Shown: positions 31,712 to 53,582, counted from the stretch's first letter. The stretch: 64,000 bases of DNA from Capsulimonadaceae bacterium (GCA_965215505.1 OZ244065.1:3264001-3328000), one strand, 5' to 3'. The notes: generated by a model from the sequence alone, not told the origin. Program-made: numbers and translations.

Positions 31712-31771
31712 TAGAGGTGTCGCCGGGCAGAGTGTCCGCGACGCCGGGACAAAGACGAGAGAACGAAGACG

Positions 31772-31903
31772 ACTAATGGCAAACCCGCCGGCTGGACCGG
31801 CCCGCCCTGAGGTGGAGTCGAAAGACGGGGACGCAAAGCTAAAGGGTCTAAGGCAGCACCCCGGCTGGGGAAGAAGACGCTGCTATGACAGCCAAGCCGC
31901 CGC
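31772..31903 (+). ncRNA. Cyclic di-GMP-I (GEMM-I) riboswitch with inserted hairpins
   Basis: GGCAAACC...GUCGAAAGAC GGGGACGCAAAGCUAAAGGGUCUAAG...UAUGACAGCCAAGCCGCC. Confidence 0.9.
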
Positions 31904-31993
31904 ACCGCCTGCGTTATCGGGAGCATTCCTTCCGCCTGGGAGAGTCCCAGACGGAAACACCCAACTAGCAAGGCATATCAGGGGGCAACAACC

Positions 31994-39488: not shown

Positions 39489-39874
39489 CGACTGACTTGC
39501 GCGAGGCCCTGCGCCGCCGGCTGGTCGCGCTGCCGGGCGCGACCGAAGAGTACCCCTTCACTCTGGCCGTTCGGGTCTTCAAGGTGGGCGGGAAGATGTT
39601 CGCCGTGACCGGGGTAGACGATGACCCGCCCTGCCTGACGCTGAAGGGCACTCCGGACGACAACGAGATCGACCGCGCCGAGTACCCCGCCGTCCGGCCT
39701 GGCTGGCACATGAACAAGCGCCACTGGAACACCATCACCCTGGACGGCTCCGTCCCCGACGAAGTGCTGGCAGAGATGATCTCGGCCTCCCATGCCCTCG
39801 TGGTACATGGACTGCCCCGTGCCCTTCGCCCGGCTCTACTGGAGAAAACCAATGCCGCAGATCACCGCACTTGA
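39485..39874 (+). CDS. MmcQ/YjbR-family DNA-binding protein
   Basis: VFKVGGKMFA, PGWHMNKRHWNT. Confidence 0.92.
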   Translation: MTTDLREALRRRLVALPGATEEYPFTLAVRVFKVGGKMFAVTGVDDDPPCLTLKGTPDDNEIDRAEYPAVRPGWHMNKRHWNTITLDGSVPDEVLAEMISASHALVVHGLPRALRPALLEKTNAADHRT

Positions 39875-40535
39875 ACCCCAGAAGCGCCCCGGCCGACTGA
39901 ACATCTTCGTGGACGGCCAATTCGTCATCGGGGTGGGGGAGACGGTCGCCGCCGACCTCAGCCTGCGCGTCGGGCGCGAGATCACGCCGGACAAGCTGCG
40001 CGAGATCGCCGGGGCCGAGGAGGTCCACAAGGCCACCGAGAACGCCCTGCTCCTGCTGGAAGTCCGGGCGCGGGCGCGGCGCGAGATCGAGACGCGGCTG
40101 ACGCAGAAGGGCTATGAGGAGGGCGTCATCAGCCAGGTCATCGCGAACCTGACGCGGCTCGGCCTGCTCGATGACGCCCAGTTCGCGGCCCAGTGGGTGG
40201 AGGCCAAGACGCGCGAGGGCGGCAGCCGGCCCGTGGGCCGCCGGCGGCTGTCCTCCGAGCTGTACGGCAAAGGGGTCGCTCGGGAGCAGATCGCCGAGGC
40301 CGTCGAGAAGGTCACGAACGCCGACGAACTGGCTTTGGCGCGGGCGGCGGCGGGCAAGAAGGTCCGCACCGTCCCGACCGACCGGGACGCCTTGCAGGCC
40401 GAGCGCCGCAAGCTGATGGGCTTCTTGCAGCGGCGCGGCTTCGGCTGGGAGACCGTCAAGCAGGTGACACGCGAGGCGCTGCCCTCGCCGGGAGACGAGT
40501 CTTTGGAAGAGGCCGAGGAAGAGTACGACGGGTGA
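39852..40535 (+). CDS. recX: Regulatory protein RecX
   Basis: R.NIF.DG.F N-domain, E...RL..KG, LLDD..FA, L..KG, FL.RRGF. Confidence 0.9.
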   Translation: MPQITALEPQKRPGRLNIFVDGQFVIGVGETVAADLSLRVGREITPDKLREIAGAEEVHKATENALLLLEVRARARREIETRLTQKGYEEGVISQVIANLTRLGLLDDAQFAAQWVEAKTREGGSRPVGRRRLSSELYGKGVAREQIAEAVEKVTNADELALARAAAGKKVRTVPTDRDALQAERRKLMGFLQRRGFGWETVKQVTREALPSPGDESLEEAEEEYDG

Positions 40536-40716: not shown

Positions 40717-43533
40717 TCACGGCTTCTTCGGCGTCAGGTCGTCCCCGATCCGCCCGTCATCCCCGCCGTCGTGTCCCTCGACCGTGTTGTCCGCACCGAT
40801 GGCCTCACGCGCCCCGGCCGTGGCGAAGGCTTTCGGCGGGGCGTTCGGCGTCCAGTTCCAGAAGTAGGCGAGATCGCGGCGAAGCAACGTCCCCACCGTG
40901 CGCGGGCCTGACTCGTAGCCGACCGGGGCGTCGCGGACGAAATTGAACTCGGCGATGGTCCCCTCGACCGCGAGGTCGGCGGGGTCCTCGGGCCGGGCCG
41001 GGCCAGCCGAGATGGACAGGCCCGCCGTCCGGCTCTGCGTCATGCTGTTGTGCCGCAGGACCGTCCCTAGGGCGCGCGGCCAGTCCACCGAGCGGCTGGC
41101 CTGCGGGTCGTCCTCGATGCCCAGGCGGATGCCCCGGTCCGTCTCACTGATGCGGTTACCCTCGACCGTGTTGTAGAACAGCGGCCCGATGCCCGCGTTC
41201 CAGGTGTTCGGCATCGCCGGCCCCGCCGTACTCATGGCCCCGTAGAGGTAGATGCCCTCTTTCCGCTCCCCGGCGATCTCGTTGTCCGCGAAGATGTTCC
41301 GGTAGCCGCCGATCCAGAGCTGGATGCCGCTCATGCCGTCGGGCAGGCGGTTCCCGACGACGATGTTGTGGGCGAACGAGAGCGCCTCCAGGACGAGCGA
41401 ATGGCCGTCCGGCGGGACCGCCCAGGGCTGGTCCAGCGTCAGTGTCCTTCCCTGCCGTCCCACGACGCGCCGCACCTGGCCCAGCCCTCGGCCCCGGACG
41501 ACGTACACATAATACTCGTCCTGCGGCGGCTCCACGTCATCCGAGACGAGCGGCGGCACGAACGGGCCACTTGGGGGCAGAGTCACGCCCGCCCCAGTTG
41601 CACTCTCAGGCGAGCCGTAATAGGCGACGCGCATGTTGGTTTCAAACAGGATGGTCTCGCCGACGTTCTGATCCGTCCCCGCCACACCCCCGAACCGCGT
41701 CCGGCCCACATTGCCCGCGATATAGTTATCGCTGACCGACCCGGCCCCCGTCGAGAACCAGAGCAGGCGGCGGGCGGTCGGGCCTCCGCCGGCATCGGGA
41801 CTGTCTGCGACGTTGCCCTCGATGACGTTCTGGTGCAGCGCGTGCGTCCGCCCCAGGATGGCGGCCTCGGCGTTGCCGCCGAACCGCGTGACGGCGTGGA
41901 GCTGGTTCCCGCGGATGCGCCCCTGCGTCATCCCCTCGAACCGCAGCGGCGCGCGCCCCGTCAGGTCACAATCCGCGACGGTGACGCCGCGCCCATTGAC
42001 GACGTACACGGCGGAGTTCTCGCCGGTCGTCCCTTCCACACCGGCCACGCGCACGTTCTCGACGCGCGCGTCTTGCAGGACGTGGCCCTGCGGGTGGGCG
42101 ACAAGTACGCCGGTACTGACGCGCGGCGAGCCGAGGACGGTCAGGCCCGCGAGGCTCGCCCCGTCGCCCGCCAGCCAGACGGCGGCGGCGTCGCCGCCAA
42201 GGAACTGCGCCTGCACGGTCCGCGAACCTGAAACGTCCTCGGCCTGTTGCACCAGCAGGGCAGGGGAAGTCTTGATCGCGGCCAGGTCGCCGGGCCGCCA
42301 GGCCGGGTCACGGGCGAAGACGAAGGCGTCCAGGTTGATCCCCCCGCCGCCCTGCGTGGCCCAGCGGACCGTGTTGGTCCCCTGCTTCAGCGTGATTGTC
42401 CCCGCCGAAGCCCAGCGGAATTTACCCCAGTCGCCCGTGTCGGCAAGGTCCTGAAGGGGAGTGGGCGGCCCGCCGCCTTCGACGGCCAGCGTCGTCCGCC
42501 CGCTCATGGGCGTCGCATTGGAGGCGGCATAGCGCACCCAGATAGTCCACGCCCCGGATGCCGGTGCGGCGACTTTGTAGGTCAGCGTGTCCCCAGCGTC
42601 CTGCAAGCCGCCGACCGCCTGACCCCAGCCGGACGCGCCCAGCCGCCGGAGCGGGACGTTGGCCGGGGCAGCAAGCTTCAGCGTCGTCTGCGCCCTCCCA
42701 GCCCCCTCCAGACGGCTCCCAGCCGAGATGACCAGGTTGCACTCCAGCGCATACGTCCCCGGCGCAAGATGCACCACCCCGCCGCGATCCAGCGCCGTCT
42801 GGATTGCGGCCGAGTTGCTCCCCACCTGCATCAAGATTAGTGGCATTCGGGAGAGCGCAACTGGGCGCACTTCCAGCGCAACCGGCCCGCCCCAGCCCCA
42901 CGCCCCGCCCGTCCCGGCGTAGACCCAGACTTCGTACCGGCCTGGCGCGGAGGGCGCGCGCCAGCCGACCCGGTAGCGCGAAACGGTCGCCGGCGTCACC
43001 CACGCGCCCGCCTGCCCGTGCTTCGCGACGTAGACCCAGGCGCGCGCCCGGTCGGGCCGCTCCGCCAATTCATCGCCGAACAGGTCCACCGTCTCACCCG
43101 GCGCGGCGCGGTCGGGCGTACACCACCAGGGCTGGGGCGCGTTCAGCCGGAAGGGGGCGCTGCCCCCGATCTGCCCGACGAACAGCCCATCAGGGATGTT
43201 CTGGGGCAAGGTCGCGATCAGGTGATCCGGCGCGGACGCTCGCACGGTCATGGCCTCCGCCCGCCCCGTGCCCGTTTCGCCCGGCCCCCACAATGTCACC
43301 GTCCGGCCGAGGCCCGCTCCCGCCACGAAGAAGCTGTCATCCGGCCCCGCGCTCGTCGTGCCGCTGTAGACCTGTCCTGCGCCCGAGGCCGGGAACACAG
43401 GCTGATAGGTCGGCGTCGGCAGGACGGGTGCCGGGTCGGGGTGGGGGAACGAGGCCGATGTGACCTGGGCGCGGACGCCGCTTGCGCTCATCGTCAGCGC
43501 CAGAAGCGCGGCGGCCATCAGAGGTCTGTTCAT
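40717..43533 (-). CDS. Secreted right-handed beta-helix (pectin-lyase-like) protein with inserted CBM6/35-like module
   Basis: Signal peptide; AIQ.ALD.GGVV.L.PGTY, W.RYA...TG.W....L..G.N...G.NLD, repeated xxxN ladders. Confidence 0.75.
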   Translation of the reverse strand: MNRPLMAAALLALTMSASGVRAQVTSASFPHPDPAPVLPTPTYQPVFPASGAGQVYSGTTSAGPDDSFFVAGAGLGRTVTLWGPGETGTGRAEAMTVRASAPDHLIATLPQNIPDGLFVGQIGGSAPFRLNAPQPWWCTPDRAAPGETVDLFGDELAERPDRARAWVYVAKHGQAGAWVTPATVSRYRVGWRAPSAPGRYEVWVYAGTGGAWGWGGPVALEVRPVALSRMPLILMQVGSNSAAIQTALDRGGVVHLAPGTYALECNLVISAGSRLEGAGRAQTTLKLAAPANVPLRRLGASGWGQAVGGLQDAGDTLTYKVAAPASGAWTIWVRYAASNATPMSGRTTLAVEGGGPPTPLQDLADTGDWGKFRWASAGTITLKQGTNTVRWATQGGGGINLDAFVFARDPAWRPGDLAAIKTSPALLVQQAEDVSGSRTVQAQFLGGDAAAVWLAGDGASLAGLTVLGSPRVSTGVLVAHPQGHVLQDARVENVRVAGVEGTTGENSAVYVVNGRGVTVADCDLTGRAPLRFEGMTQGRIRGNQLHAVTRFGGNAEAAILGRTHALHQNVIEGNVADSPDAGGGPTARRLLWFSTGAGSVSDNYIAGNVGRTRFGGVAGTDQNVGETILFETNMRVAYYGSPESATGAGVTLPPSGPFVPPLVSDDVEPPQDEYYVYVVRGRGLGQVRRVVGRQGRTLTLDQPWAVPPDGHSLVLEALSFAHNIVVGNRLPDGMSGIQLWIGGYRNIFADNEIAGERKEGIYLYGAMSTAGPAMPNTWNAGIGPLFYNTVEGNRISETDRGIRLGIEDDPQASRSVDWPRALGTVLRHNSMTQSRTAGLSISAGPARPEDPADLAVEGTIAEFNFVRDAPVGYESGPRTVGTLLRRDLAYFWNWTPNAPPKAFATAGAREAIGADNTVEGHDGGDDGRIGDDLTPKKP

Positions 43534-44015
43534 GGGCGTTCATAGCTCCAACTCAGCATCGCCCCGTCTTCATACGGCATGACGCCGTGAAAGGGGCGCG
43601 GGTCGCCATCGAACACGAGGGGCAGAAAACAGTGGTCGCTGGGCCACAGCGGCAGGCCAGGAACCGACGACAGCGGCACCCACTCCAGCGTGCCCTCGTG
43701 GTTGCCTTCATGCGCCGTGCCGTGCCACGCATCTATTAGGAAGATGAACCCGAACCAGTCCGCGCCGCCCTTGCCGAAACCCGGCCAGGAGATCGTCCCG
43801 CGCAGGGTCATCCCCCCGGCGGTCAGCCCCGACTCCTCCCGTATCTCCCGCCGCATCCCCGAAACGATGTCTTCCCCCGGCCCCAATTTCCCGCCCAGGC
43901 CATTGTATTTGCCGAAGTGGAGGTCGTCCGGCCGCTTGTCGCGCCGGATCATCAGGACCGATTGCTGGTCCTGGGAGAGAACGTAACCTAATGTAGCGAG
44001 AATGGGTTGGTACAT
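43530..44015 (-). CDS. NUDIX hydrolase (MutT/MTH1-like)
   Basis: Complete Nudix box GGKLGPGEDIVSGMRREIREESGL; EG.LEW, LWPSD. Confidence 0.92.
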   Translation of the reverse strand: MYQPILATLGYVLSQDQQSVLMIRRDKRPDDLHFGKYNGLGGKLGPGEDIVSGMRREIREESGLTAGGMTLRGTISWPGFGKGGADWFGFIFLIDAWHGTAHEGNHEGTLEWVPLSSVPGLPLWPSDHCFLPLVFDGDPRPFHGVMPYEDGAMLSWSYERP

Positions 44016-44022
44016 GGGCGTC

Positions 44023-45219
44023 CTAAATCAGCATCCGCGCCGGCGCGGGGCGACTCTTGCGCGCGGCGTCGCGCACCTCGCCGGTCAGAAGGTAGCCGAA
44101 GCCGGCCTTTTCCAGCCGCAGGACGAAGTCGTCCCGCGTCACATGGAGGCGCTCCGAGGCCGTATCCAGGTGCCACTCCGCCTCGGACAGCAGTTGGAGC
44201 AGATAGGCCCGCCGCGTCTGAACCGCCGACAGGCGGTACGTCTTCAGATACTCCAAACGGCCGTCGTCCCGGACGATTGCCTCGCCCATGTGGTTGTCCC
44301 CGTTCAGGCTCAGGTCCGTCACGAACCGCTGCAAGGTGAACGGCCCCGCCGTGTAGACCCGCTCCGACCGGACGGTCCGCCCAAGCAGGTCATGGGCCAT
44401 GAAGCCCTGGAACTCGGCCCAATCCGACCGCACACGCGCCAGCGCGGCCCGCAGATCAGACAGGCCGCCGATCTTGCCCGCGTCAATAACGACTTCCAGC
44501 GGCAGGACGTCGTCGTAGAGCAGGCCATACTGATAGATCAGCTCGCCGTAGAAGTCTTGCAGCAGCGACCGATGCAACGCGCGGTAATCGTCGGGGTGGG
44601 GAGTCACGAAGGCGGACGCCAGGGCGTCTGCGACGAACACCAGGACGCCGACTTGGTCCTCGTGCATCTCGAACGTCCGCAGGGCGTCTTCAAAGCCGGC
44701 GATCTGCTCGCCGCCGTAGACCGTTTCGGAGCGCGGGTCCAGGCCCCGGCGGATGGCCCGCCGGGAATACTCGGCCCAGGCGATCTCCGGGCCGGAGAAG
44801 GACAGCGCCAGGAAGCCTTCCATCGCCAGGTGCATCGGCAGGAACCGCAATTGGTTTCCGGCCTCGCGCTTCGCCATGCGCGGCAGCACGCGCAGGCTGG
44901 CGAAGGACCCCGCGAACCGTTTGCCGTCCGCCCCGGCCAGCCCCGCGCCGAAGGCGGCCACGGCGCTCCCGTCGCTGTTCCAGGACATCACCATGCCGTG
45001 CGGGACGTAGGAGACGTACTTGATGCCCGGCGCGAGCAGGGGGCCATCAAGGGACACGACGGCGACGTCATCTTTGTACGCGCGCCTGGCCAGCCGCAGA
45101 TCGCCCGGCGCGTCCCGCCGCAGCAGGGGGACCAGCCGGACCGTCCCGCGCACCTGCGAGGGCGCGATCTCCAGGCCGTTCAGCGTCAGCGTCTCGATCA
45201 GATGGGCGGCATGAGCCAT
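44023..45219 (-). CDS. ARPP-2-like domain protein with C-terminal Fis-type HTH
   Basis: GL...PSQV.G.VRLVPLLR, P.HLAMEGFL, DALR.FE.HE.QVG; C-terminal RAYLL.LL....W.L..AS..L.V.R..F..RL..AG; family call from recall. Confidence 0.6.
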   Translation of the reverse strand: MAHAAHLIETLTLNGLEIAPSQVRGTVRLVPLLRRDAPGDLRLARRAYKDDVAVVSLDGPLLAPGIKYVSYVPHGMVMSWNSDGSAVAAFGAGLAGADGKRFAGSFASLRVLPRMAKREAGNQLRFLPMHLAMEGFLALSFSGPEIAWAEYSRRAIRRGLDPRSETVYGGEQIAGFEDALRTFEMHEDQVGVLVFVADALASAFVTPHPDDYRALHRSLLQDFYGELIYQYGLLYDDVLPLEVVIDAGKIGGLSDLRAALARVRSDWAEFQGFMAHDLLGRTVRSERVYTAGPFTLQRFVTDLSLNGDNHMGEAIVRDDGRLEYLKTYRLSAVQTRRAYLLQLLSEAEWHLDTASERLHVTRDDFVLRLEKAGFGYLLTGEVRDAARKSRPAPARMLI

Positions 45220-46682
45220 CAGTCGGCCTCCTCGCCGGAGTCACTAGCCGTGCCGATCATCCGGGCGGCGCGCGACGCCAGATACGCCTCCAAGTCGGAC
45301 AGCGGCAAGGTGCCCTCGGCGAAGCGGGCGAAGCCGAGCATCGTCGGCAGGTCCTCGGCGTCCCGCAGGCCGACGGTCGGCACGAGCGGGCTGAGGGGCC
45401 GTAGGGTGAAATCGTCCGGGTCGAAGACCGGGTTGCAGTGGACAATGGAGGTCCGCCGGGCCGGGTCCAGACGCAAGCGGAAGACTCGCAGCACTTCGGA
45501 GGCCCCGTGCGGCGGGTCGTTCTCGCAGCCGTCGGAGACGATCACGATCAATTCCGCGCCCCAGTCCAGGGCGTCCAGCAGCGGCGTCGCCAGGTCCGTC
45601 TGCCCGTGCGCCCGCGCCATCGACGGGTCGGCAGTCGGGCAAGTCCAGAAGGCGCGATACTCCTGGGCCGCCGATTGCAGCAGGTAATGAGAAGCCAGGG
45701 CCACGGCCAGTGGCCGGCGGCGCTTCTCGGAAGACCCCGAGCTGGAATAGCTGCCGTCCAGCACGGCGGCCACGCGCCCCAGCCGCAGCGGGGCCTTAAG
45801 GAGCGCCTGCCGCGCCGCCGCTTCCAGGGCCGGATGCAGGACGTCATGCTGCGCCCGCCGCTCGTCGTCGGTCAGAGACAGCGCGTACAGGGCCAGCTTT
45901 GTCAGGGGCAGCCGCTCCCACTCCACGGCCAGCGCAGCATCGCCGACGCGGGCCGCTGTCTTTTGCAGCCGCAGCCGCTCCCCCGCCGTCAAGAGTGGCG
46001 CGATGCGCTCCAGGAAGACGTCGCGCGGGATCTTGTGCTTTGCCGCCAGGCCCTCGGCGACCGTGTAGGGCAGGCGGTAGACCGCCTCGGCGCTGTGGTG
46101 CGCCTGCCGGAAGCTTTCCAAAAGTGGCGTCTGGAAGACCTTGCGCTGCCAGCCCTTAAACAGGAACCCGCCGACCTCGCCGGGCAGGCACAGATGGGCA
46201 TGACGCGCCATGCCATGGACCTTGGTGCGGTACTTGACCGCATCGAACGCCAGGTCGCGACGCCGCGCCCCGTACTCGCGGGCGACCGCCCGTGCCCGCC
46301 GGTTGTTGATGCGACGGTCGCGCAATGCCTCCAAAACCCGCCACGCGCGGGGCGGCGGCAGGGCGTGGAGGGCGGCCGTCAGCAGGCCATTCTCCTCGGC
46401 TTGGTGCGCGCGGGCGGCGTCACGGCCCGTCGCCAGCAGGTTCAGGATGATCTGCGCCTGGTTGAAGTGGTTGATGCCCGCCGCCAGGGTGCGCGCGTAC
46501 AGCAGCCGGTAGTTGCCCAGGATGTAGCGGTGCAGGAAGTCAATCGAGACGCGCTGGTCCGACCCGTCGCTGTAGAACTCGCGCTGCCCGGTGCAGGCGA
46601 AGCAGGCGTTGACGAACATGACCAGGTCCTCGCGGGCGACCTGCTCTTTGCGCTCTCGTTCCAAAACCTCTTTAGCGTTCAT
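45219..46682 (-). CDS. Divergent Ro60/TROVE-like helical protein with C-terminal vWA (MIDAS) domain
   Basis: Helical Arg-rich N-terminus; VLDGSYSS (DxSxS), GQTDL, VIVSDG.EN. Confidence 0.6.
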   Translation of the reverse strand: MNAKEVLERERKEQVAREDLVMFVNACFACTGQREFYSDGSDQRVSIDFLHRYILGNYRLLYARTLAAGINHFNQAQIILNLLATGRDAARAHQAEENGLLTAALHALPPPRAWRVLEALRDRRINNRRARAVAREYGARRRDLAFDAVKYRTKVHGMARHAHLCLPGEVGGFLFKGWQRKVFQTPLLESFRQAHHSAEAVYRLPYTVAEGLAAKHKIPRDVFLERIAPLLTAGERLRLQKTAARVGDAALAVEWERLPLTKLALYALSLTDDERRAQHDVLHPALEAAARQALLKAPLRLGRVAAVLDGSYSSSGSSEKRRRPLAVALASHYLLQSAAQEYRAFWTCPTADPSMARAHGQTDLATPLLDALDWGAELIVIVSDGCENDPPHGASEVLRVFRLRLDPARRTSIVHCNPVFDPDDFTLRPLSPLVPTVGLRDAEDLPTMLGFARFAEGTLPLSDLEAYLASRAARMIGTASDSGEEAD

Positions 46683-46699
46683 GGGCGGCTGCTATACAT

Positions 46700-46791
46700 A
46701 GAAAGGGGCCGACCGGGGAATGGCGGCACGACTGGCATACACTGCTCCATAGGCGGTTTCGGAAGTCGCGCCAGAGTCCCACGGCCGGCCT
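46700..46791 (-). ncRNA. Candidate structured RNA (possibly Y-RNA-like) directly upstream of the TROVE/vWA-like gene
   Basis: Outer stem GGCCGGCCG/CGGUCGGCC, inner 9-bp stem GGCGCGACU/AGUCGUGCC, 30-nt loop, CUUUCU tail; -10 TATACT at 46798-46803. Confidence 0.45.
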
Positions 46792-46862
46792 GTGTCCAGT
46801 ATACCCCAGGCAGGTTGAAGGGCCGCACACGTCGAAGAGGACTGAGAGCGGGAGGAAAGCAG

Positions 46863-49800
46863 ATGGGACAGGACGGCGACAGCGGGCGGCGGGCGGGGCA
46901 GCCGAACCGACGCCTGGCGGTGCGGATGCTCGTGGCGCGTCTGGCATGGCTGGACGGCGTACCCGTTTGGAGCGGCGGGCGCATCGCCTGGGAGGGCGGG
47001 GAGGGCGGCGTGGTGTCGCCGGGACCTTCGGACCTGGCGCGCGCCCAGCGCTGCCTGCACAAGCTCCGCCAGTACCCGCGCGCCGCCCCGCTCGTGCTGG
47101 GCGACAGCCTGGCCTGGCTGGAGGAGCGCCGACAGCGCCTGGAGCATGTCAAGAGGTTGGCCGCCCTCCACGAGCTTGACATCCCCGCCTTGATCGGTCG
47201 GGCCGAGGCGGGCGATGGGGATGCTCTGGGCCGGCTCGCCGCCCTGTCGCCCGCCGAAGCCGTCTGCGTCAACCCGCTCCCCGCGTCCCCCTGCCGCGCC
47301 CTCACCGCACTCGGCCCGCGCGCCGCGCCGTTGCTGACCGCCCAAGCGCAAGATTCCGCCGCCCTGCCGGAGACGCGATGCCTCGCCGCCCTGACCCTCG
47401 GCGCGATCCACGGCCGGGCGGAGGGTGGCAGGCTGCCGCCCTTCACCGGGTCCGGCGGCGAGTCGCGCGCCTATGGCTGGGGGCGGCGTCATGGCCTGCC
47501 GCCCGACCCCGCCCTGGCCGCCGCCCTGCTGGCTGAGGAGGGTGGAAATGCCCTGGTCGCCCGGTGCCTCGCGGCCACCGCACCCGATCTGCCCCTCGCC
47601 CTGATGCCGGAACACCTGCGCCGCCTGGTGCGGCGGGGAGTGTCCCCGGAGCGCGTCACCGCCCTGGCCGAAGCCGTCGCCGAGGCCCGGCCCCTGGCCG
47701 CGCGGCTGGCCCGCTACCGGGAGGAACTGCCGGACAGACGCGCCGCCGAGCGCCGCAAGGCCGCGCGGGCGCTGAACGAGCAGCGTCAGGGGGTGATGAC
47801 GGTCATAGCCGATCTGTACAGGGAATATGCGATGATGTACGGCGACCCCACCGTCGTCTCCTCGCTGACCGCGTTCCTGTTCTCGATGCTAGACCTCGCG
47901 CCACCCTCGGAGCAGTGGACGGCGGCGGTATCGGCCATGCTGGACGACGGCCTGACGCTGCCGCCCGCACTGGCGGCGGCCTATCTAGGGCTGCTGACGG
48001 ACCGGCACGACCGCCAGGAGGGCCGCCCTCCCCTGCCGACGGAGCCGAAGGACGCCGTCAAGCATCTGATCTGGCGGGCGGAGGTGCGGCACAAGTGGCT
48101 CCCCCAGCGCTGCCGGGATGCACGGTCGCTCTGCGTCCTCCTGGGCAGGACCGGCGACGCCGAGATCGCGCGGGAGGCGCTGGCGCTGAGGGTGCATCGC
48201 GTTTTGGACGATTACGACTGGTCCGACCCGGACAAGTACCGCCGGCTTCTGGCACTTCTCGCGTCCCTCCCGCAAGCCGGGCGGGAGACGTACCGCCTGT
48301 GTGACCTGGTGGACGGCCTGGGGGACGCCGGGGCGGTCCGGGCCGCGATAAACCCGGTCATGGCCGCGCTCCACCCGGAGACGCCCGCCGTCCGGGCCGT
48401 GGTCTGGAACGCCCTGCTGGATGAGATCGGCTGGGACAGGTCCGCCCGGCGGAAAGCCTTGCCCCGTCTGGGCCGCTGCGCGCCGTCCCTGGCAGCCTTC
48501 GCCCGGCAAAGCAAACACCCTGACCATCTGGCGGCCTGCCTGGGTGGCCTGATGGCGCTTGACCCGTCGTGGTCCGAGGCGGCATCGGCTTGGCTCGACC
48601 GGATGCTGGCCGACCTGCTCGCGCGGGAGGCGCGCGGCGACGCCGGGCTGAGTGAAGAGGTCGTCCGCACGGCCGCCGTCCTCGCGTCCGCCCTGGGTGC
48701 CGGCGACCCGGACAGGATGATGGATGTCTTCCGGGCGTCCCTGGGACACGCCCTGCACATCGAGGAAGGTCGCTTGGAGCAGGGGCTGTCCCTGCTCGGG
48801 CGCTTCCCCGCTGCGCGGGCACCGCTGGCCGCCCTCTTCCCGCAGCAGCCCCGGCGCTGCGCCGCCCTGCTGGTCCGGCTCGGCCTGACTGCCCGGCTCG
48901 GGGCGGAAGCACTGGCCCCCCTGCGGCGGCTGGCCCCATCGCGCACGGACACGTCCTTTTTCCCCGTCCCCCTCGGCCCCGACGGCGGCTGGTGGCGTCT
49001 GCACCGGGCGTGTCCCGAACTGAGCAGTGAAGCGGCTTCCTACCGACACGCCTGCTGGGTGCATCATCAGAGGCCGGCCCTACCGCCGGGCGTCCGGCAG
49101 GCATTGGCGCAGCCGCAGCGTCGGGCCGAGGAGCTGGCGCACCTGGAACGGAGTGCCGCCGGACGCCCTGAGATCGGCAAGCGCATGGACAGGCTGCGCG
49201 CCCTGCTCGACGCCCCCGAACAGATGCAGGCCGATGTCCGGGCGGCGGTGCGGGAGCGTCTGCCGCGCCTGAACGCGGAAGCACAAATGGCCGCCCTGGA
49301 ACATCAGATGGAGGGCTGCTACCGAGCGCGGCTAGAGGAGCTGACCGGCCCTCTGCCCGCCGGTTTGATCCTCAGCGACGACCTCATCAACGCCGTTCTG
49401 CTGGCCGCCGACCTGACCCAGAACCGACGCCTGCTGCTGCGCCTGCTGCGCGCCCACCTAGCGGGCGAACCGCGCTGGCGCGAGTCGCACCCAGACAACG
49501 TCCGCTTCCTGGACTCGCTGACCGCGCAGGGGGCGGACGTGGGCGTCTGGCTGTCCGCGCGCCCGCGCCGCTACCCGTGTGCGGGCGCGGCGGGCGGGCG
49601 AGTCCGCCTGTGGCTGGAGCGCGACCCGCTGCACGTCTTGCAGATGGGCAACTACTTCGACACCTGTCTCAGCTTCGACGATTTCAACGCCTTCTCGACC
49701 GTCGCCAACGCCTGCGAGCTGAACAAGCGCGTGATCTACGCCCGCGACGGGGCGGGCCACGTCGTCGGGCGCAAGCTCATCGGCGTCTCCGGGGACGGCG

Positions 49801-50030
49801 CGCTGGTCGGCTTCCGCACCTACACGTCGCTGACCGGGAAGGCGGAGAATGCCTCCTTGCAAGCCGTCATCCGGCACTACGCCGCCGCCTTCGCCGCCGA
49901 CTGCGGGCTGCCCCTGGCCGACACTGGCACGGTGCCGACCCTGTTCGCCGAGGCCTGGTACGATGACGGCACGGCGGCATGGGACGGGGAGGGGACGCCG
50001 CCTGCCCGTTCGGGTATACTTAAGGCATGA
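46863..50030 (+). CDS. Large helical protein (~1055 aa) with a motif-rich C-terminal alpha/beta domain (PcfJ/GNAT-like by recall)
   Basis: GGAGG RBS before ATG 46863; Leu/Ala/Arg-rich body; DPLHVLQMGNYFDTCLS...NAFSTVANA.ELNKRVIYARD..G.VVGRKLIG. Confidence 0.7.
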   Translation: MGQDGDSGRRAGQPNRRLAVRMLVARLAWLDGVPVWSGGRIAWEGGEGGVVSPGPSDLARAQRCLHKLRQYPRAAPLVLGDSLAWLEERRQRLEHVKRLAALHELDIPALIGRAEAGDGDALGRLAALSPAEAVCVNPLPASPCRALTALGPRAAPLLTAQAQDSAALPETRCLAALTLGAIHGRAEGGRLPPFTGSGGESRAYGWGRRHGLPPDPALAAALLAEEGGNALVARCLAATAPDLPLALMPEHLRRLVRRGVSPERVTALAEAVAEARPLAARLARYREELPDRRAAERRKAARALNEQRQGVMTVIADLYREYAMMYGDPTVVSSLTAFLFSMLDLAPPSEQWTAAVSAMLDDGLTLPPALAAAYLGLLTDRHDRQEGRPPLPTEPKDAVKHLIWRAEVRHKWLPQRCRDARSLCVLLGRTGDAEIAREALALRVHRVLDDYDWSDPDKYRRLLALLASLPQAGRETYRLCDLVDGLGDAGAVRAAINPVMAALHPETPAVRAVVWNALLDEIGWDRSARRKALPRLGRCAPSLAAFARQSKHPDHLAACLGGLMALDPSWSEAASAWLDRMLADLLAREARGDAGLSEEVVRTAAVLASALGAGDPDRMMDVFRASLGHALHIEEGRLEQGLSLLGRFPAARAPLAALFPQQPRRCAALLVRLGLTARLGAEALAPLRRLAPSRTDTSFFPVPLGPDGGWWRLHRACPELSSEAASYRHACWVHHQRPALPPGVRQALAQPQRRAEELAHLERSAAGRPEIGKRMDRLRALLDAPEQMQADVRAAVRERLPRLNAEAQMAALEHQMEGCYRARLEELTGPLPAGLILSDDLINAVLLAADLTQNRRLLLRLLRAHLAGEPRWRESHPDNVRFLDSLTAQGADVGVWLSARPRRYPCAGAAGGRVRLWLERDPLHVLQMGNYFDTCLSFDDFNAFSTVANACELNKRVIYARDGAGHVVGRKLIGVSGDGALVGFRTYTSLTGKAENASLQAVIRHYAAAFAADCGLPLADTGTVPTLFAEAWYDDGTAAWDGEGTPPARSGILKA

Positions 50031-50073: not shown

Positions 50074-51297
50074 GTGACGCTCGAACAGATAGACGCGGCC
50101 CTGGCCGAGTGGCAGGGGAAGCTGAACCTCGCCAGCGCCAACCTGCTGGAACTCGACGACCTGTTCACCTACAAGCGGCTCCGGGGGACGGCGGGGGCGG
50201 CCCTCGTCGGCGTCACGCGGGAGCGGGTCGGGCCTGCCCTGGCCGCGATGGACCAGTTGTGGCAGTCGCTCGCGCTGCTGACGGACACCATCGGCCGCGC
50301 GCAGGCTCTGCGTAAGTCGGCCTCCCGGCTGTGGGCCACCGAGCGCACGGGCCGCGAGATCGAGGAGATCTTGTCGGGGCCGTCCGTCCTCATGCCCGCC
50401 CCGCCCGCCCCGCTCGCCCAGCGCGAGCTGCTTTCCACCGCCGACTCCACCCTCTCCATCACCCCGTCGCAGCTCCTCTCGACCATGATGGGGGCCTTCG
50501 ACGCCGCCCGGAACACCATCCTGGCCGTGGACGCCGCCTGGAACCGACTGGAACCGCTGCTGGCCGCCGCCGGGCGCGAGGCCGATGCGCTCCAAACCCT
50601 GGCCGAAGGACTGGGCGAACCCGCGCCGCCCGACCTTGCCACGGGCCGGCAGAAGATCGAGGGGCTGACCGCCCGCGTCGAGACCGACCCGCTGGGCGTG
50701 CAGACCGATTTCGCCGCCGAGCTGTCCCCGCTGCTGGCGCGGGCGCGCGCCTGGCTGGACGACCTGGCCCGGCAGCGCGCCGAAGTGGGGGCAAATCAGG
50801 CCCGCGCGCATTCGCTGCTGCAAGCCCTGTCGGGCGTGACCCAGGACTGCGCGGCGGCCTACGCGGAGTGTCTGGAAAAGGCCGCCGCCGCCTCGGGTCC
50901 GGTCCCACCCCCCGACGCCGCCCAGGCCGCCGACCTCGCCGCCTGGCTCGGGACCCTGGACGCCGCGCTGGCGCAGGGCCGCTGGAAGGCCGCCCGGATC
51001 GGCCTGGACCGCTGGCTGCTGACCGCCGAGGCCGACCTCGCCGCCGCCCGTGCGGCCCTCGCCTCGAACCGGGCCGCGCTGGAAAAGCGGGCCGAGCTGC
51101 GCGGCTGCCTCGCCTCCCTGCGCGTCAAGGCGCAGGCTTACGCCGCGCGCGGCGTCGCCCTCGACCCCGCCCTGGCCGCCGTCGCCGACCAAGCCGACCG
51201 CCTGCTGTCGTCCCGGCCCACGCCGCTGGAAGAGGCCACCCGCCTGGTTTCCGACTATGAGGCGCGGCTTGCGCGGGCGTTGAAGGGCGGGCGCTGA
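50074..51297 (+). CDS. Coiled-coil protein of the PknG-type cluster
   Basis: All-helical; NLLELDD...L.G.T..R and R.ELRG.L....KA, as recalled from Streptomyces kinase-cluster proteins. Confidence 0.75.
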   Translation: MTLEQIDAALAEWQGKLNLASANLLELDDLFTYKRLRGTAGAALVGVTRERVGPALAAMDQLWQSLALLTDTIGRAQALRKSASRLWATERTGREIEEILSGPSVLMPAPPAPLAQRELLSTADSTLSITPSQLLSTMMGAFDAARNTILAVDAAWNRLEPLLAAAGREADALQTLAEGLGEPAPPDLATGRQKIEGLTARVETDPLGVQTDFAAELSPLLARARAWLDDLARQRAEVGANQARAHSLLQALSGVTQDCAAAYAECLEKAAAASGPVPPPDAAQAADLAAWLGTLDAALAQGRWKAARIGLDRWLLTAEADLAAARAALASNRAALEKRAELRGCLASLRVKAQAYAARGVALDPALAAVADQADRLLSSRPTPLEEATRLVSDYEARLARALKGGR

Positions 51298-51386: not shown

Positions 51387-53582
51387 ATGGATATCCTGTG
51401 TCAGAGGCCGGGCTGTTCCGGCAAGATCGTGGACGGAGTCTGCGAAGACTGCGGGCGTCCGCCCGCCGGGAAGTCGCTCGTCCCAGGCCCCGCCGTCAGC
51501 ACCCAGGCGTCGGCGAAGCTGGCCTCGGCGCGGACCTCTTCGGCCGTCTCCACCGCCTCCTCGTCGTCTTCTTCGGCGTTCTCGGGCCGGACCTCGGGGT
51601 CGGCCCGCAGCGGGAGGTCGTCGGGGCGCGGCTCACGCGGCTCCTCGCGCCGCGCGCTTGGCGCGGGCCTGGTCACGCTGCCGCCGCTCCCCTCGCTCGA
51701 CCCGCTGCTCTCCCTGCTGACCGACCCCGTCGTGCCGGAGCGCAAGCGGTACTGCAACAACTGCGGCGCGAAGGTCAACAATGAGAAGGGCTTCTGCCCG
51801 CAGTGCGGCCAGGAATACTCGTTCGTCCCGACCCTGAAGCCGGGCGACGTGGTGGCCGGACAGTATGAGGTCAAAGGGGCCATCGCCTTCGGCGGCCTGG
51901 GCTGGATCTATCTGGGCTGGGACAACATCCTGTCCCGGTGGGTGGTCCTGAAGGGCCTGCTGAACTCCAAGGACGCCGCCTCGGCCCAGGCCGCCGTCAC
52001 CGAGCGGCAGTTCCTGGCCGCCGTCAAGCACCCCAAACTGGTCGGCGTCTACAACTTCGTCACGCGCGGGACCGAAGGCTACATCGTGATGGAGTACGTC
52101 GGCGGCAAGACGCTCAAGGCGATCCGGCAGGAGCGCGGCCCGCTGCCCGCGACCGAGGCCATCGCCTACATCTACGCCATCCTGCCCGCCTTCGCCTACA
52201 TGGAGCGTCAGGGCCTGGTCTACTGCGACTTCAAGCCCGACAACTGCATGCTGGAGGACGACGACGTCAAGCTGATCGACATGGGCGGCGTCCGGCGCGT
52301 GGACGACCTGGGCGGCGACGTCTACGGCACCAAGGGGTACTCCGCGCCCGAAGCCGACGACGCCCCCTCGTTCGCCTCGGACCTCTACACCGTCGGCCGG
52401 ACCCTGGCCCTGCTGCTGATGGACTTCAAGTTCCAGGGCCAGTATCTCACCAGCCTGCCGCCGCGCGAGGAGCAGCCCGTCCTCGCCAAGTACGAGTCGC
52501 TGGACCGCTGGCTGCGGAAGGCGACGCGCGAGAACCCCGACGACCGCTTCCAGACGGCGGACGAGATGGGGGACGACCTGCTGGGCGTCCTGCGCGAGAT
52601 CGTCGCCGAGGACGGCACCCCGCGCCCCGCCGACAGCGCCCTGTTCACCGGCGATGTCAGTGAGGAGAACACGGTTTCCGTCCCCGGCGTCGCCCTGCTG
52701 CCCGCCCTGAAAGTGGACCCGCTGGACCCCGCCGCCAACGCCGTCCTGTCCACGGGCGGCCGGGCCGACCCGAACCAACTGGCGATGGCCTTTGCCAGTG
52801 CCGCCAAGAAGTTCCCCGACTCGTCCGAGGCCCCCCTGCGGCTGGCCCTGGTCCAGATCGGATTGGAGCAGTACGCCAAGGCCGAGCAGACCTTGCACGG
52901 CATCGAGGAGCGTGACCCGTTCGACTGGCGCGTCCACTGGTATCGCGGGCGGATGCGGCTGGGCCAGGGGCAGACCAAGGACGCCTATGCCCTCTTCGAC
53001 CGCGTTTATAGCGAGCTGCCCGGCGAACTCGCCCCCAAGCTCGCCTGTGCCCTGGCCGCCGAGGCGTCGGGCAACCGGGACACGGCGATGCGCCTCTACG
53101 ATGTGGTTTCGCGCACCGACCCGAGCTTCACCGCGGCGGCCTTCGGCCTGGCCCGCTGCCGCGCCGCCGTCGGCGACCGGGCGGGGGCCGTCGCCGCCCT
53201 GGCCCGCGTCCCAGGCACGTCCAGCCTGTACGTCCCGGCCCAGCTCGCGCTGGCCCGCGTCCTGGTCCAGCCGACGCCCACCCCGCCCGGCGCGTCCGAG
53301 ATTCGCCAGGCGTCCGAGGCGATCCAGGCGCTCGCTTTGGACGGCCTGGCCCTGCACCAGTTCTCCGCCGAGCTGTTCCTGACCGCCGTCGCCCAGGTGG
53401 AGGCCAAGGCTTTCCCCGAGAACCCCGCCGACATGGTGCTGGGCCAGTCCCTCCAGCTTCGGTCGTTGCGGGCCGGGGCGGAGCGCGAGCTGCGCGCCTG
53501 CGCCCACCTGTCCAAGACGCCCGAGGAGCGGATCGCCTTCGTGGATCAGGCCAACAAGGTGCGGCCCCGGACGCTGTTCTAA
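51387..53582 (+). CDS. pknG: PknG-like Ser/Thr kinase (Zn ribbon, rubredoxin-like, kinase, TPR)
   Basis: CNNC..CPQC, QYEVKGAIAFGGLGWIYL, WVVLKGLL, YCDFKPDN, IDMG, PGELAPKLA, VDQANKVRP.T. Confidence 0.9.
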   Translation: MDILCQRPGCSGKIVDGVCEDCGRPPAGKSLVPGPAVSTQASAKLASARTSSAVSTASSSSSSAFSGRTSGSARSGRSSGRGSRGSSRRALGAGLVTLPPLPSLDPLLSLLTDPVVPERKRYCNNCGAKVNNEKGFCPQCGQEYSFVPTLKPGDVVAGQYEVKGAIAFGGLGWIYLGWDNILSRWVVLKGLLNSKDAASAQAAVTERQFLAAVKHPKLVGVYNFVTRGTEGYIVMEYVGGKTLKAIRQERGPLPATEAIAYIYAILPAFAYMERQGLVYCDFKPDNCMLEDDDVKLIDMGGVRRVDDLGGDVYGTKGYSAPEADDAPSFASDLYTVGRTLALLLMDFKFQGQYLTSLPPREEQPVLAKYESLDRWLRKATRENPDDRFQTADEMGDDLLGVLREIVAEDGTPRPADSALFTGDVSEENTVSVPGVALLPALKVDPLDPAANAVLSTGGRADPNQLAMAFASAAKKFPDSSEAPLRLALVQIGLEQYAKAEQTLHGIEERDPFDWRVHWYRGRMRLGQGQTKDAYALFDRVYSELPGELAPKLACALAAEASGNRDTAMRLYDVVSRTDPSFTAAAFGLARCRAAVGDRAGAVAALARVPGTSSLYVPAQLALARVLVQPTPTPPGASEIRQASEAIQALALDGLALHQFSAELFLTAVAQVEAKAFPENPADMVLGQSLQLRSLRAGAERELRACAHLSKTPEERIAFVDQANKVRPRTLF

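Follow-up and report, generated by a model that had tools for sequence, protein, structure and literature searches.

In the genome of a Capsulimonadaceae bacterium we analysed a stretch of 64,000 nucleotides (GCA_965215505.1 OZ244065.1:3264001-3328000; the whole stretch is called the window below, and positions are counted from its first letter), and our results revealed on its minus strand a module of a structured RNA, a 487-residue protein predicted to join a helical ring to a vWA domain (here called TROVE-like), and a 398-residue protein of the ARPP-2 family with a putative helix-turn-helix (HTH) domain at its C-terminus. These three parts are the conserved core of the locus, and they are found in Armatimonadota, Cyanobacteria and Myxococcota. 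With moderate confidence we consider that they form a ribonucleoprotein (RNP) of the Ro60/Y-RNA type with a built-in enzyme. A preliminary description of the same DNA had proposed a five-part ADP-ribose conflict system, which added to this core a NUDIX gene downstream and a large divergent gene for a 1055-residue protein; the RNA/TROVE-like/ARPP-2 core of that proposal was supported, while the NUDIX gene, the 1055-residue protein and the link to ADP-ribose were not. The elements of the core are located in the window as follows:

46798..46803, minus strand: TATACT, a -10-like hexamer and inferred promoter element, read from the sequence and from its conserved placement
46707..46790, minus strand: stem-bulge RNA of about 84 nt, from the covariance model, folding and covariation
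45219..46682, minus strand: gene of the 487-residue TROVE-like/vWA protein, from the listing of open reading frames (ORFs)
44023..45219, minus strand: gene of the 398-residue ARPP-2-HTH protein, from the ORF listing and Pfam

The G+C content around the module is about 70%, and the start of the ARPP-2 gene shares one nucleotide (45219) with the stop of the TROVE-like gene. The gene layout reported earlier, namely this overlap, a gap of 7 nt (44016-44022) between the ARPP-2 and NUDIX genes and the divergent large gene, was found in every point.

The 487-residue protein has a Ro60-type fold

Searches with the 487-residue protein gave no match in Pfam (E<=0.01), NCBIfam, PADLOC or PHROGs, and Pfam likewise gave none in any of the 7 scanned TROVE-like representatives without an ARPP-2 part. 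Nostocales cyanobacteria, Myxococcota and Capsulimonas have homologues with 63-69% identity. Among 1.84 billion representatives, 680 members of the family are recovered by profile search at E<=1e-3, of which 234 are at E<=1e-30, and some of the UniRef homologue records are already named 'TROVE domain-containing protein'. In sequence searches of the PDB, the TROVE-like profile, the ARPP-2 profile and the 1055-residue protein all gave chance matches only (E 0.15-0.8).

An AlphaFold 2 (AF2) model built from 18 homologues, with a predicted local distance difference test (pLDDT) value of 80.6, places a helical ring at about residues 1-296, followed by a vWA domain whose metal ion-dependent adhesion site (MIDAS, DxSxS) is intact; D309, S311, S313 and D384 are invariant among the 18 homologues, and position 362 is either T or S (T362 here). 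When this model was compared with the PDB by Foldseek, the 12 best matches were all Ro60, Rsr or TROVE proteins (E 1.4e-6 to 1.4e-4), among them a 'Trove domain' entry and the Ro60 of Thermus phage phiLo. In VIA-align the model reaches Z 17.3 against 9kop (401 residues, root-mean-square deviation (rmsd) 4.3), Z 16.6 against 9l5y and Z 12.8-15.2 against the remaining Ro60/Rsr entries. These alignments are full-length and include the ring, spanning residues from about 18 to 476 with 395-408 residues aligned, and the structures that match the vWA part only rank lower (Z of 11 or less). As modelled, the 487-residue protein is thus a Ro60/TROVE-type helical ring joined to a vWA fold, and the fold check bears out the TROVE/vWA assignment of the preliminary description.

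A conserved structured RNA precedes the TROVE-like gene

The RNA was first seen as a block shared by all 8 Armatimonadota loci when the 400 nt upstream of the TROVE-like gene were aligned, where it starts a few bases after a -10-like hexamer, and a loose motif search picked it up in cyanobacterial loci as well. The consensus from an alignment of 24 sequences is one extended hairpin with four helices: P1 has 8-9 bp and is variable and covarying, P2 (GGGA/UCCC) is nearly invariant, P3 has 9 bp with conserved G-U pairs, and P4 is a variable apical stem or hairpin, while the bulges and internal loops are highly conserved in sequence. Both sides have changed at 14 of the 26 pairs in this alignment, in which 94.3% of the cells are paired against 77.4% in shuffles and the covariation score is 0.509 against 0.185, a value that none of 500 shuffles attained; when the 3' partners are slid by 1-3 columns, the pairing falls to 35-52%. 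For the 91 distinct matches collected later, 96.2% of the cells are paired, 18 of the 26 pairs have changed on both sides, and 337 compensatory cells are counted against 75.7 in shuffles, figures that lean towards the model since the alignment was fitted to it.

A covariance-model search over 87 sources (1.54 Mb in total, cut-off E<=0.01) found the RNA 98 times in 81 sources, and all copies lie upstream of the TROVE-like gene and on its strand, with one copy in 65 loci, two in 15 and three in one. All 13 myxobacterial loci have it, and so do 81 of the 83 in which the upstream sequence is 500 nt or longer; four others (L056, L065, L089 and L103), in which no match was obtained with the filters off, have too short an upstream sequence. 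The window RNA matches the model at 46701-46793 on the minus strand (93.1 bits, E 1.5e-20), and this is the sole match in the 6.18-Mb genome. Folded alone, 46705-46792 (minus strand) adopts the consensus shape at -45.3 kcal/mol (z -3.96), whereas the whole 180-nt intergenic region gives a z of only -1.97. The end-paired hairpin that had been noticed from the sequence is therefore well founded, since none of 200 shuffles is as stable and compensatory changes are seen in other phyla. Within the order of the window's genome, 11 of 71 genomes have the RNA, in one copy each: all 8 with a strong ARPP-2 match, a decayed locus (G402, described below), and 2 genomes outside the ARPP-2 test. In two cyanobacterial loci the RNA lies far from the gene, 7.3 kb upstream of it at L040:2584-2677 and 1.2 kb upstream at L038:8646-8739, which suggests insertions between the two.

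No Rfam 15 family matches the RNA at E<=10 beyond the chance level (window 46500-47000 and L027:9400-10100). At the gathering score, the sole Rfam match in the whole window is the aptamer of a cyclic di-GMP (c-di-GMP-I) riboswitch away from the module (31768-31904, plus strand; 47 bits against a gathering score of 35). The RNA has nevertheless the layout of a Y RNA, with a stem joining its 5' and 3' ends, conserved bulges, a Ro-like gene beside it, and two or three copies in 16 loci. In short, what had been seen as a hairpin is a genuine structured RNA that goes with the TROVE-like and ARPP-2 genes.

One could also regard the inverted repeat as a DNA operator or attenuator, the ARPP-2-HTH protein as the transcription factor acting on it, and the TROVE-like/vWA protein as a protein-binding sensor that has nothing to do with RNA. 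The element does lie between a -10-like hexamer and the start codon, and the C-terminal domain of ARPP-2 is predicted to be Fis/NtrC-like as described below; but 26 paired positions with compensatory changes and strand-specific G-U wobbles are expected of an RNA and not of a DNA palindrome, and the Ro60 fold match is full-length with the ring included. In fact the conserved G-U pairs of P3 would be A-C mismatches on the other strand, which argues for an RNA on the minus strand and against a DNA operator. We therefore hold the operator explanation to be highly improbable.

Distribution of the module

A pattern scan of one genome per species, covering 185,579 species, yielded 387 loci that encode a relative of the TROVE-like protein, and the locus counts given here refer to the best 80 of them, with at most 10 kb of flank per side. 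In 77 of these 80 the ARPP-2 gene follows directly downstream on the same strand (tBLASTn), and two of the misses (L019 and L060) end at a contig edge. In 36 of the 77 loci the two genes are separated by -28 to +10 nt, and longer spacers of up to 2 kb occur mainly in Nostocales. Behind ARPP-2, no same-strand ORF of at least 100 residues begins within 400 nt in 48 of 78 loci, and an all-against-all clustering of the flanking ORFs found no third protein conserved across phyla. A co-occurrence survey of all the genes had been suggested by the preliminary description, and its outcome is divided: the RNA, the TROVE-like gene and the ARPP-2 gene go together, and the NUDIX and 1055-residue protein genes are local.

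The distribution is patchy. Within the phylum of the window's genome, ARPP-2 is found in 14 of 401 genomes, and in 2 of the 17 further genomes of the same genus in that sample. Two loci, L044 and L049, are plasmid-borne. Moreover, an identity of 63-69% across three phyla suggests horizontal transfer.

Some individual loci depart from the common arrangement. In L104 (G389:C37) the ARPP-2 protein matches only at residues 1-59 and 236-390 and appears to have an internal deletion, with the TROVE-like gene and the RNA intact. In 26 Nostocales loci (L021, L023, L027, L030, L037 and others) an ORF of 120-134 residues without a Pfam match is located upstream on the same strand.

ARPP-2 and its predicted docking on the vWA domain

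The profile check leaves little doubt about the ARPP assignment made earlier: the 398-residue protein is a full-length member of Pfam PF22549 (ARPP-2; E 2e-115, 385 bits against a cut-off of 27), with residues 11-292 matching positions 1-278 of the 278-position profile, and it also matches ARPP-1 weakly (E 0.0048). Q22, H74, H130, E134, E184, Q189, H216 and D222 are invariant among the homologues. Residues from about 280 to 390 are modelled well by AF2, and the five best fold matches for this part, whose putative HTH lies at about residues 329-375, are the DNA-binding domains of NtrC1, NtrX, Fis, Fis and NtrC4, at Z 5.4-6.0 with 46-64 residues aligned (the best with 46 residues at rmsd 1.7). 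Pfam gives no HTH match in this protein at E<=0.01, and NCBIfam, PADLOC and PHROGs have no match for it. The C-terminus is thus a putative Fis/NtrC-like HTH, which lends modest support to the Fis-like domain suggested before.

A complex prediction for the TROVE-like protein and ARPP-2 gave an ipSAE of 0.66 (0.69, 0.66 and 0.65 in the runs), against 0.01 for the best of three controls. This mark is reached by 116 of 157 solved complexes and by 2 of 215 mismatched pairs, counts that are only approximate here because our own alignments were used. At least 81% of the contacts are common to the three runs, and the pLDDT of the partner is at least 66. The predicted interface is formed by the MIDAS loops on the vWA side (311-313, 359-362 and 384-393) and by positions 22, 178-187 and 241-267 of ARPP-2, including the invariant Q22 and E184. 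The prediction supports a docking of ARPP-2 on the MIDAS face of the vWA domain, and we know of no solved complex between a Ro60 vWA domain and a partner that the predictor could have memorised, nor of any ligand for the MIDAS site of Ro60.

A natural fusion points in the same direction. In the 828-residue protein P0179 the two proteins are joined in frame, with Pfam ARPP-2 at 452-721 (E 1.4e-80); since overlap between the two genes is frequent, one indel could be enough to fuse them, and the fusion is to be taken as supportive only. Among proteins of 698-2000 residues, a search for fused, longer forms of ARPP-2 found none, which is weak evidence.

Transcription of the module and a proposed mechanism

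In the window, TATACT precedes the RNA, 7 nt before its first paired base. Upstream of P1, at a distance of 4-11 nt, a TAnnnT hexamer is present in all 13 myxobacterial loci, in 7 of the 8 Armatimonadota loci and in 37 of the 60 cyanobacterial ones; the background rate at 4050 random positions is 12%, and all 13 myxobacterial hexamers carry a TGn extension. Consensus scans for promoters and terminators in 46600-46950 and 43300-44100 found nothing, and no full -35/-10 site at TATACT, so the -10 element is proposed from its conserved placement. This placement suggests that the transcript probably starts at the RNA, which would give the RNA its 5' end. For Chlorogloeopsis fritschii PCC 6912 (L021), contigs from RNA libraries of three studies start at 9372-9387 and span both RNA copies and the TROVE-like gene, and further contigs cover ARPP-2. 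The break between the two sets falls at a short dispersed repeat (L021:11397-11452) in the spacer between the two genes, at which many RNA-library contigs with unrelated flanks stop and the total depth is very high. Similar spacers, variable and up to 2 kb long, separate the TROVE-like and ARPP-2 genes in other Nostocales loci.

We propose the following scenario for the RNA, the TROVE-like protein and ARPP-2. A -10-type promoter would drive an operon whose first 85 nt or so, counted from the inferred 5' end, would fold into the stem-bulge RNA. By analogy with the binding of the conserved Y RNA stem by Ro60, the TROVE-like ring would bind this RNA, either as part of the leader or as a fragment released by processing or termination, or in both forms; it is the fold together with the exclusive co-occurrence of RNA and gene that suggests such a binding. 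The MIDAS face of the vWA domain would hold ARPP-2, as supported by the complex prediction, the natural fusion and the translational coupling of the two genes. ARPP-2 could then act on the RNA captured by the ring, and damaged or modified 3' ends are its candidate substrates, which is speculative; the conserved Gln, His and Glu residues of ARPP-2 suggest catalysis.

Several observations weigh against this scenario. The 487-residue protein has no significant sequence similarity to Ro60, and the Pfam TROVE and vWA_Ro60 profiles do not match it: a six-frame search of the genome with PF05731 at E<=1 matches the canonical rsr gene alone, BLASTP finds nothing better than E 0.19 between the protein and the Rsr encoded in the same genome, and an hhalign alignment to Rsr covers the vWA part only (E 0.0018, probability 15%). 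The RNA fits no Y_RNA, YrlA or stem-bulge RNA (sbRNA) model and has no tRNA-like module. The association is not perfect either, for L025 lacks ARPP-2 although there is room for it downstream, and L024 and L033 lack the RNA despite full upstream sequence (cmsearch with the filters off). As to ARPP-2, its alignment contains no invariant Cys, unlike that reported for ARPP; its AF2 model is poor in the N-terminal catalytic part (overall pLDDT 59.7, below 50 at residues 43-131), and a fold search on this poor model found no structure that covers the catalytic domain, so that no fold is assigned. With its putative HTH, ARPP-2 could simply be a DNA-binding regulator. Furthermore, in most loci only 11-40 nt separate the end of the proximal RNA copy from the start codon, and a T-run of at least 5 follows only 9 of the 98 copies. 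The RNA is hence usually a 5' leader, which fits a pure cis-regulation equally well. The RNA-library contigs of L021, which run continuously from the RNA into the gene, show no ends, strand, level or discrete small RNA, and DNA carry-over may contribute to them.

These last points bear on the explanation that the RNA is purely a cis-acting 5' leader, either an autoregulatory site as in the leaders of ribosomal-protein genes or a metabolite riboswitch, and not a stable partner RNA; the highly conserved bulges and internal loops, which are aptamer-like, would suit it as well. On the other hand, the tandem pairs or triplet in 16 loci are an arrangement often seen for Y RNA genes, the RNA occurs exclusively with the gene of an RNA-binding-ring fold, and no alternative pairing or anti-Shine-Dalgarno platform is evident by eye. 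Moreover, the canonical rsr of this genome is likewise preceded by RNAs encoded on its strand, and a protein-bound leader and a Y-like partner RNA are compatible with each other. A purely cis-acting role is, in our judgement, unlikely.

Turning back to the RNP with a built-in enzyme, a bolder form of it is that the module represents a third and so far unrecognised class of bacterial Ro-type RNP, having its own 'Y-like' RNA, proper to the cyanobacterial and myxobacterial lineages in which YrlA is seldom found, and a ribose-acting ARPP-2 docked at the MIDAS, in which the ring would thread damaged or ADP-ribosylated RNA ends into this enzyme for repair or de-modification. We offer this only as a tentative and rather doubtful extension. 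If the general scheme is true, it would provide a new structured RNA family outside Rfam 15 that is widespread in Nostocales, Myxococcota and Armatimonadota, would add a divergent Ro paralogue, and would name a concrete protein as the ligand of a MIDAS site of the Ro type. The uncharacterised ARPP-2 family would gain its first physical context, an RNA-binding ring, which would narrow the search for its substrate.

Neighbouring genes and a possible role in conflict

The genes that adjoin the core in the window are the following:

43530..44015, minus strand: gene of the 161-residue NUDIX protein, from the ORF listing and Pfam
40717..43533, minus strand: ORF of 938 residues with CBM6/beta-helix, from the ORF listing and Pfam
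46863..50030, plus strand: gene of the 1055-residue protein, from an in-frame ATG in the long frame 45438..50030

The stop of the NUDIX gene overlaps the start of the CBM6/beta-helix ORF by 4 nt. The gene of the 1055-residue protein starts at ATG 46863, in frame and behind GGGAGGAAAG, and it is divergent from the 487-residue protein gene, head-to-head with 180 nt between them. Farther out, the region is flanked by a RecX homologue at 39792-40535 (plus strand) and by a PknG-like Ser/Thr kinase with rubredoxin and TPR domains at 51387-53582 (plus strand).

The 161-residue protein matches Pfam NUDIX (E 1.2e-13, 51.6 bits against a cut-off of 21.1), and GX5EX7REUXEEXGU, which we take to be the Nudix box motif, was read by eye in its translation. 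A connection with ADP-ribose had been suspected for this gene, but its closest solved relatives are the MTH1/NUDT1 oxidised-purine hydrolases (E 8.9e-15; the 26 best among the 35 matches listed), followed by MutT and NUDT18, with no ADPRase among these 35, and its NCBIfam matches are weak and MutT-like. Nor does it behave as a general component, as had been supposed. Among the 80 loci from other genomes it is found in only 1, in a metagenome-assembled genome of Armatimonadales at 86% identity, and within the window's genus an orthologue is present in 4 of 24 genomes, each time at the module locus. In the decayed module G402:C15 (L129/L134), ARPP-2 is deleted, and what is left of the core, namely the RNA and the part encoding residues 1-99 of the TROVE-like protein, directly adjoins an intact NUDIX gene; the NUDIX gene thus persists in a genome that has lost ARPP-2 and most of the TROVE-like gene. 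The NUDIX protein is therefore an MTH1-like accessory specific to the genus and outside the conserved core, and in our scenario its gene would have been added to the operon there.

The 1055-residue protein, for which no match was found in Pfam, NCBIfam, PADLOC or PHROGs, had been put forward as the effector, and the survey speaks against this. Its gene occurs in 0 of the 80 related loci. The family is rare, with 36 matches including the query in 5.8 billion proteins, and is found in 33 of 401 genomes of the phylum; the TROVE-like, ARPP-2 and NUDIX genes are absent within 1.5 kb of the other 20 family loci (19 in other genomes and one paralogue in the window's own genome, at G000:C1:3203966-3204880). 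The C-terminal 300 residues or so recur in shorter paralogues across the phylum, and for the homologue P0130 the protein Atlas gives only leads below 0.9, of the HEAT/adaptin type. In L100, from the same genus, the counterpart of the 407-residue protein gene at 50074..51297 stands directly head-to-head with the TROVE-like gene and nothing lies between them; this gene and that of the PknG-like kinase form a resident pair in 12 of 24 genomes of the genus. The absence of the 1055-residue protein gene from L100 and from the related loci thus indicates an insertion/deletion difference and not a partner, and the gene would be unrelated cargo. As a caveat, P0125 (77% identical to the 1055-residue protein) and P0006 (87% to the TROVE-like protein) both come from contigs of 7682 bp, and the two may lie on one contig of a close relative. 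Altogether, the NUDIX and 1055-residue protein genes should not be counted as components of the system.

There is a further neighbour in Cyanobacteria, a divergent STAND NTPase of about 970-1030 residues with EAD4, NACHT, HEAT and NCC-H parts, which is seen in 17 loci; among the 61 cyanobacterial loci, 15 have the full-length divergent gene and 2 more have fragments or downstream copies. The 122-residue protein encoded upstream of the module in Nostocales does not resemble the N-terminal EAD4 part of the NACHT protein next to it.

Such a neighbour invites the idea that the trio is an anti-phage or conflict system, in which the RNP would sense foreign or damaged RNA, ARPP-2 would be the effector, and the NUDIX protein or the EAD4-NACHT-HEAT NTPase of Nostocales would be accessories. 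The patchy distribution of ARPP-2, the cross-phylum identity with its hint of horizontal transfer and the two plasmid loci would all agree with it, and in the accessible text of PMC9503650 ARPP is described in ADP-ribose conflict contexts. Against this, the sequences are very highly conserved, unlike those of fast-evolving defence genes, and the core has no recognisable toxic effector domain. Nor was an EAD4 domain found in any of the TROVE-like, ARPP-2 and upstream 122-residue proteins, and the NUDIX and 1055-residue protein genes fail to co-occur with the core. The PADLOC check proposed for a defence role was negative as well: PADLOC-DB 2.0 holds no family for the TROVE-like, ARPP-2 and 1055-residue proteins, and the NUDIX protein matches PDC-S07 weakly (E 5.1e-5). 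ARPP-2 has 0 matches in 50,697 phage records, which tells neither for nor against a defence role. A conflict system is in our opinion quite unlikely, and a conflict role is kept in view because of the patchy distribution, the two plasmid copies and the EAD4-NACHT-HEAT-NCC-H neighbour. An RNP with a built-in enzyme would most probably serve to survey or repair RNA under stress, a role favoured by the high conservation, the MTH1-like accessory and the parallel with Rsr.

Comparison with known systems

Ro60 with its Y RNAs is a classic RNA-surveillance particle and a human autoantigen. Bacterial counterparts are the Rsr-Yrn1-PNPase machine 'RYPER' of D. radiodurans and the rsr-yrlBA-rtcBA operon of Salmonella, and to our knowledge the Rsr/Y RNA/PNPase machine is the only one understood in bacteria. 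The window's genome has its own canonical rsr as well (L144, G000:C1:1682163-1686053; protein P0160), with Pfam TROVE at 1e-46 and vWA_Ro60 at 1.7e-66. Upstream of it, on the same strand, Rfam models detect a tRNA-like match (109 nt, 44.5 bits) and a fragment resembling tmRNA, and nematode sbRNA models match three times below threshold; these RNAs are probably Y RNAs of the YrlA type. With a canonical rsr and a separate Ro-like family, the genome thus has two Ro-type systems. As far as the accessible text of Chen et al. 2014 (PMC4201824) goes, comparatively few YrlA RNAs are found among the cyanobacteria and the delta-proteobacteria, which are two of the three groups where the module is common.

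As for novelty, ARPP-2 as a Pfam family and TROVE-like names in UniRef were already known, and the RNA, the pairing of TROVE-like protein and ARPP-2 and the predicted MIDAS docking appear to be new: neither the literature searched nor Rfam 15 gives an account of any of the three. The Pfam ARPP-2 entry may mention the neighbourhood. 'TROVE' occurs 0 times in the main text of PMC9503650 and in the part of its supplement text that was searched. Y RNA, Ro60, vWA and Rsr likewise occur 0 times in the main text of PMC12873609, which surveys the RNA structures of 202 cyanobacterial genomes and whose supplements could list the element anonymously.

The module resembles Ro60/Rsr in having a helical ring and a C-terminal vWA domain with a MIDAS, and in having next to the gene a same-strand stem-bulge RNA with paired ends, sometimes in several copies. 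In both, an RNP would be linked to an effector enzyme, which on the Rsr side is PNPase. It differs in that the 487-residue protein has no detectable similarity to Pfam TROVE or vWA_Ro60, that its RNA is mostly the 5' leader of an operon and has no tRNA-like module, and that ARPP-2 is predicted to sit directly on the MIDAS face and not to be tethered by RNA. The Ro60/Rsr proteins with Y RNAs compared here include the Ro60 of Thermus phage phiLo with Yrl1/2; the literature used is PMC12135203 and PMC4201824.

For ARPP, an action on ribose moieties has been proposed (Iyer, Burroughs, Anand and Aravind 2022, PMC9503650), and the available text of that work describes absolutely conserved Cys and Gln residues and names as partners ARG, Macro, NADAR, restriction endonucleases, HIRAN, WYL and a deacetylase. 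The module shares with these systems a tight and conserved two-gene neighbourhood and contains a full-length Pfam ARPP-2 member; unlike them, its ARPP-2 has no invariant Cys and is fused to a putative Fis-like HTH.

A last comparison is with the vWA-MIDAS adaptors, such as the integrin I-domain and the MIDAS of Rea1/MDN1 that binds a ubiquitin-like (UBL) domain. The vWA domain of the module aligns to the Rea1/MDN1 MIDAS with Z 11.0, and in the predicted interface its MIDAS loops likewise contact an acidic, conserved stretch of the partner; the difference is that the partner here would be the enzyme-like ARPP-2, and not a UBL domain or an extracellular ligand.

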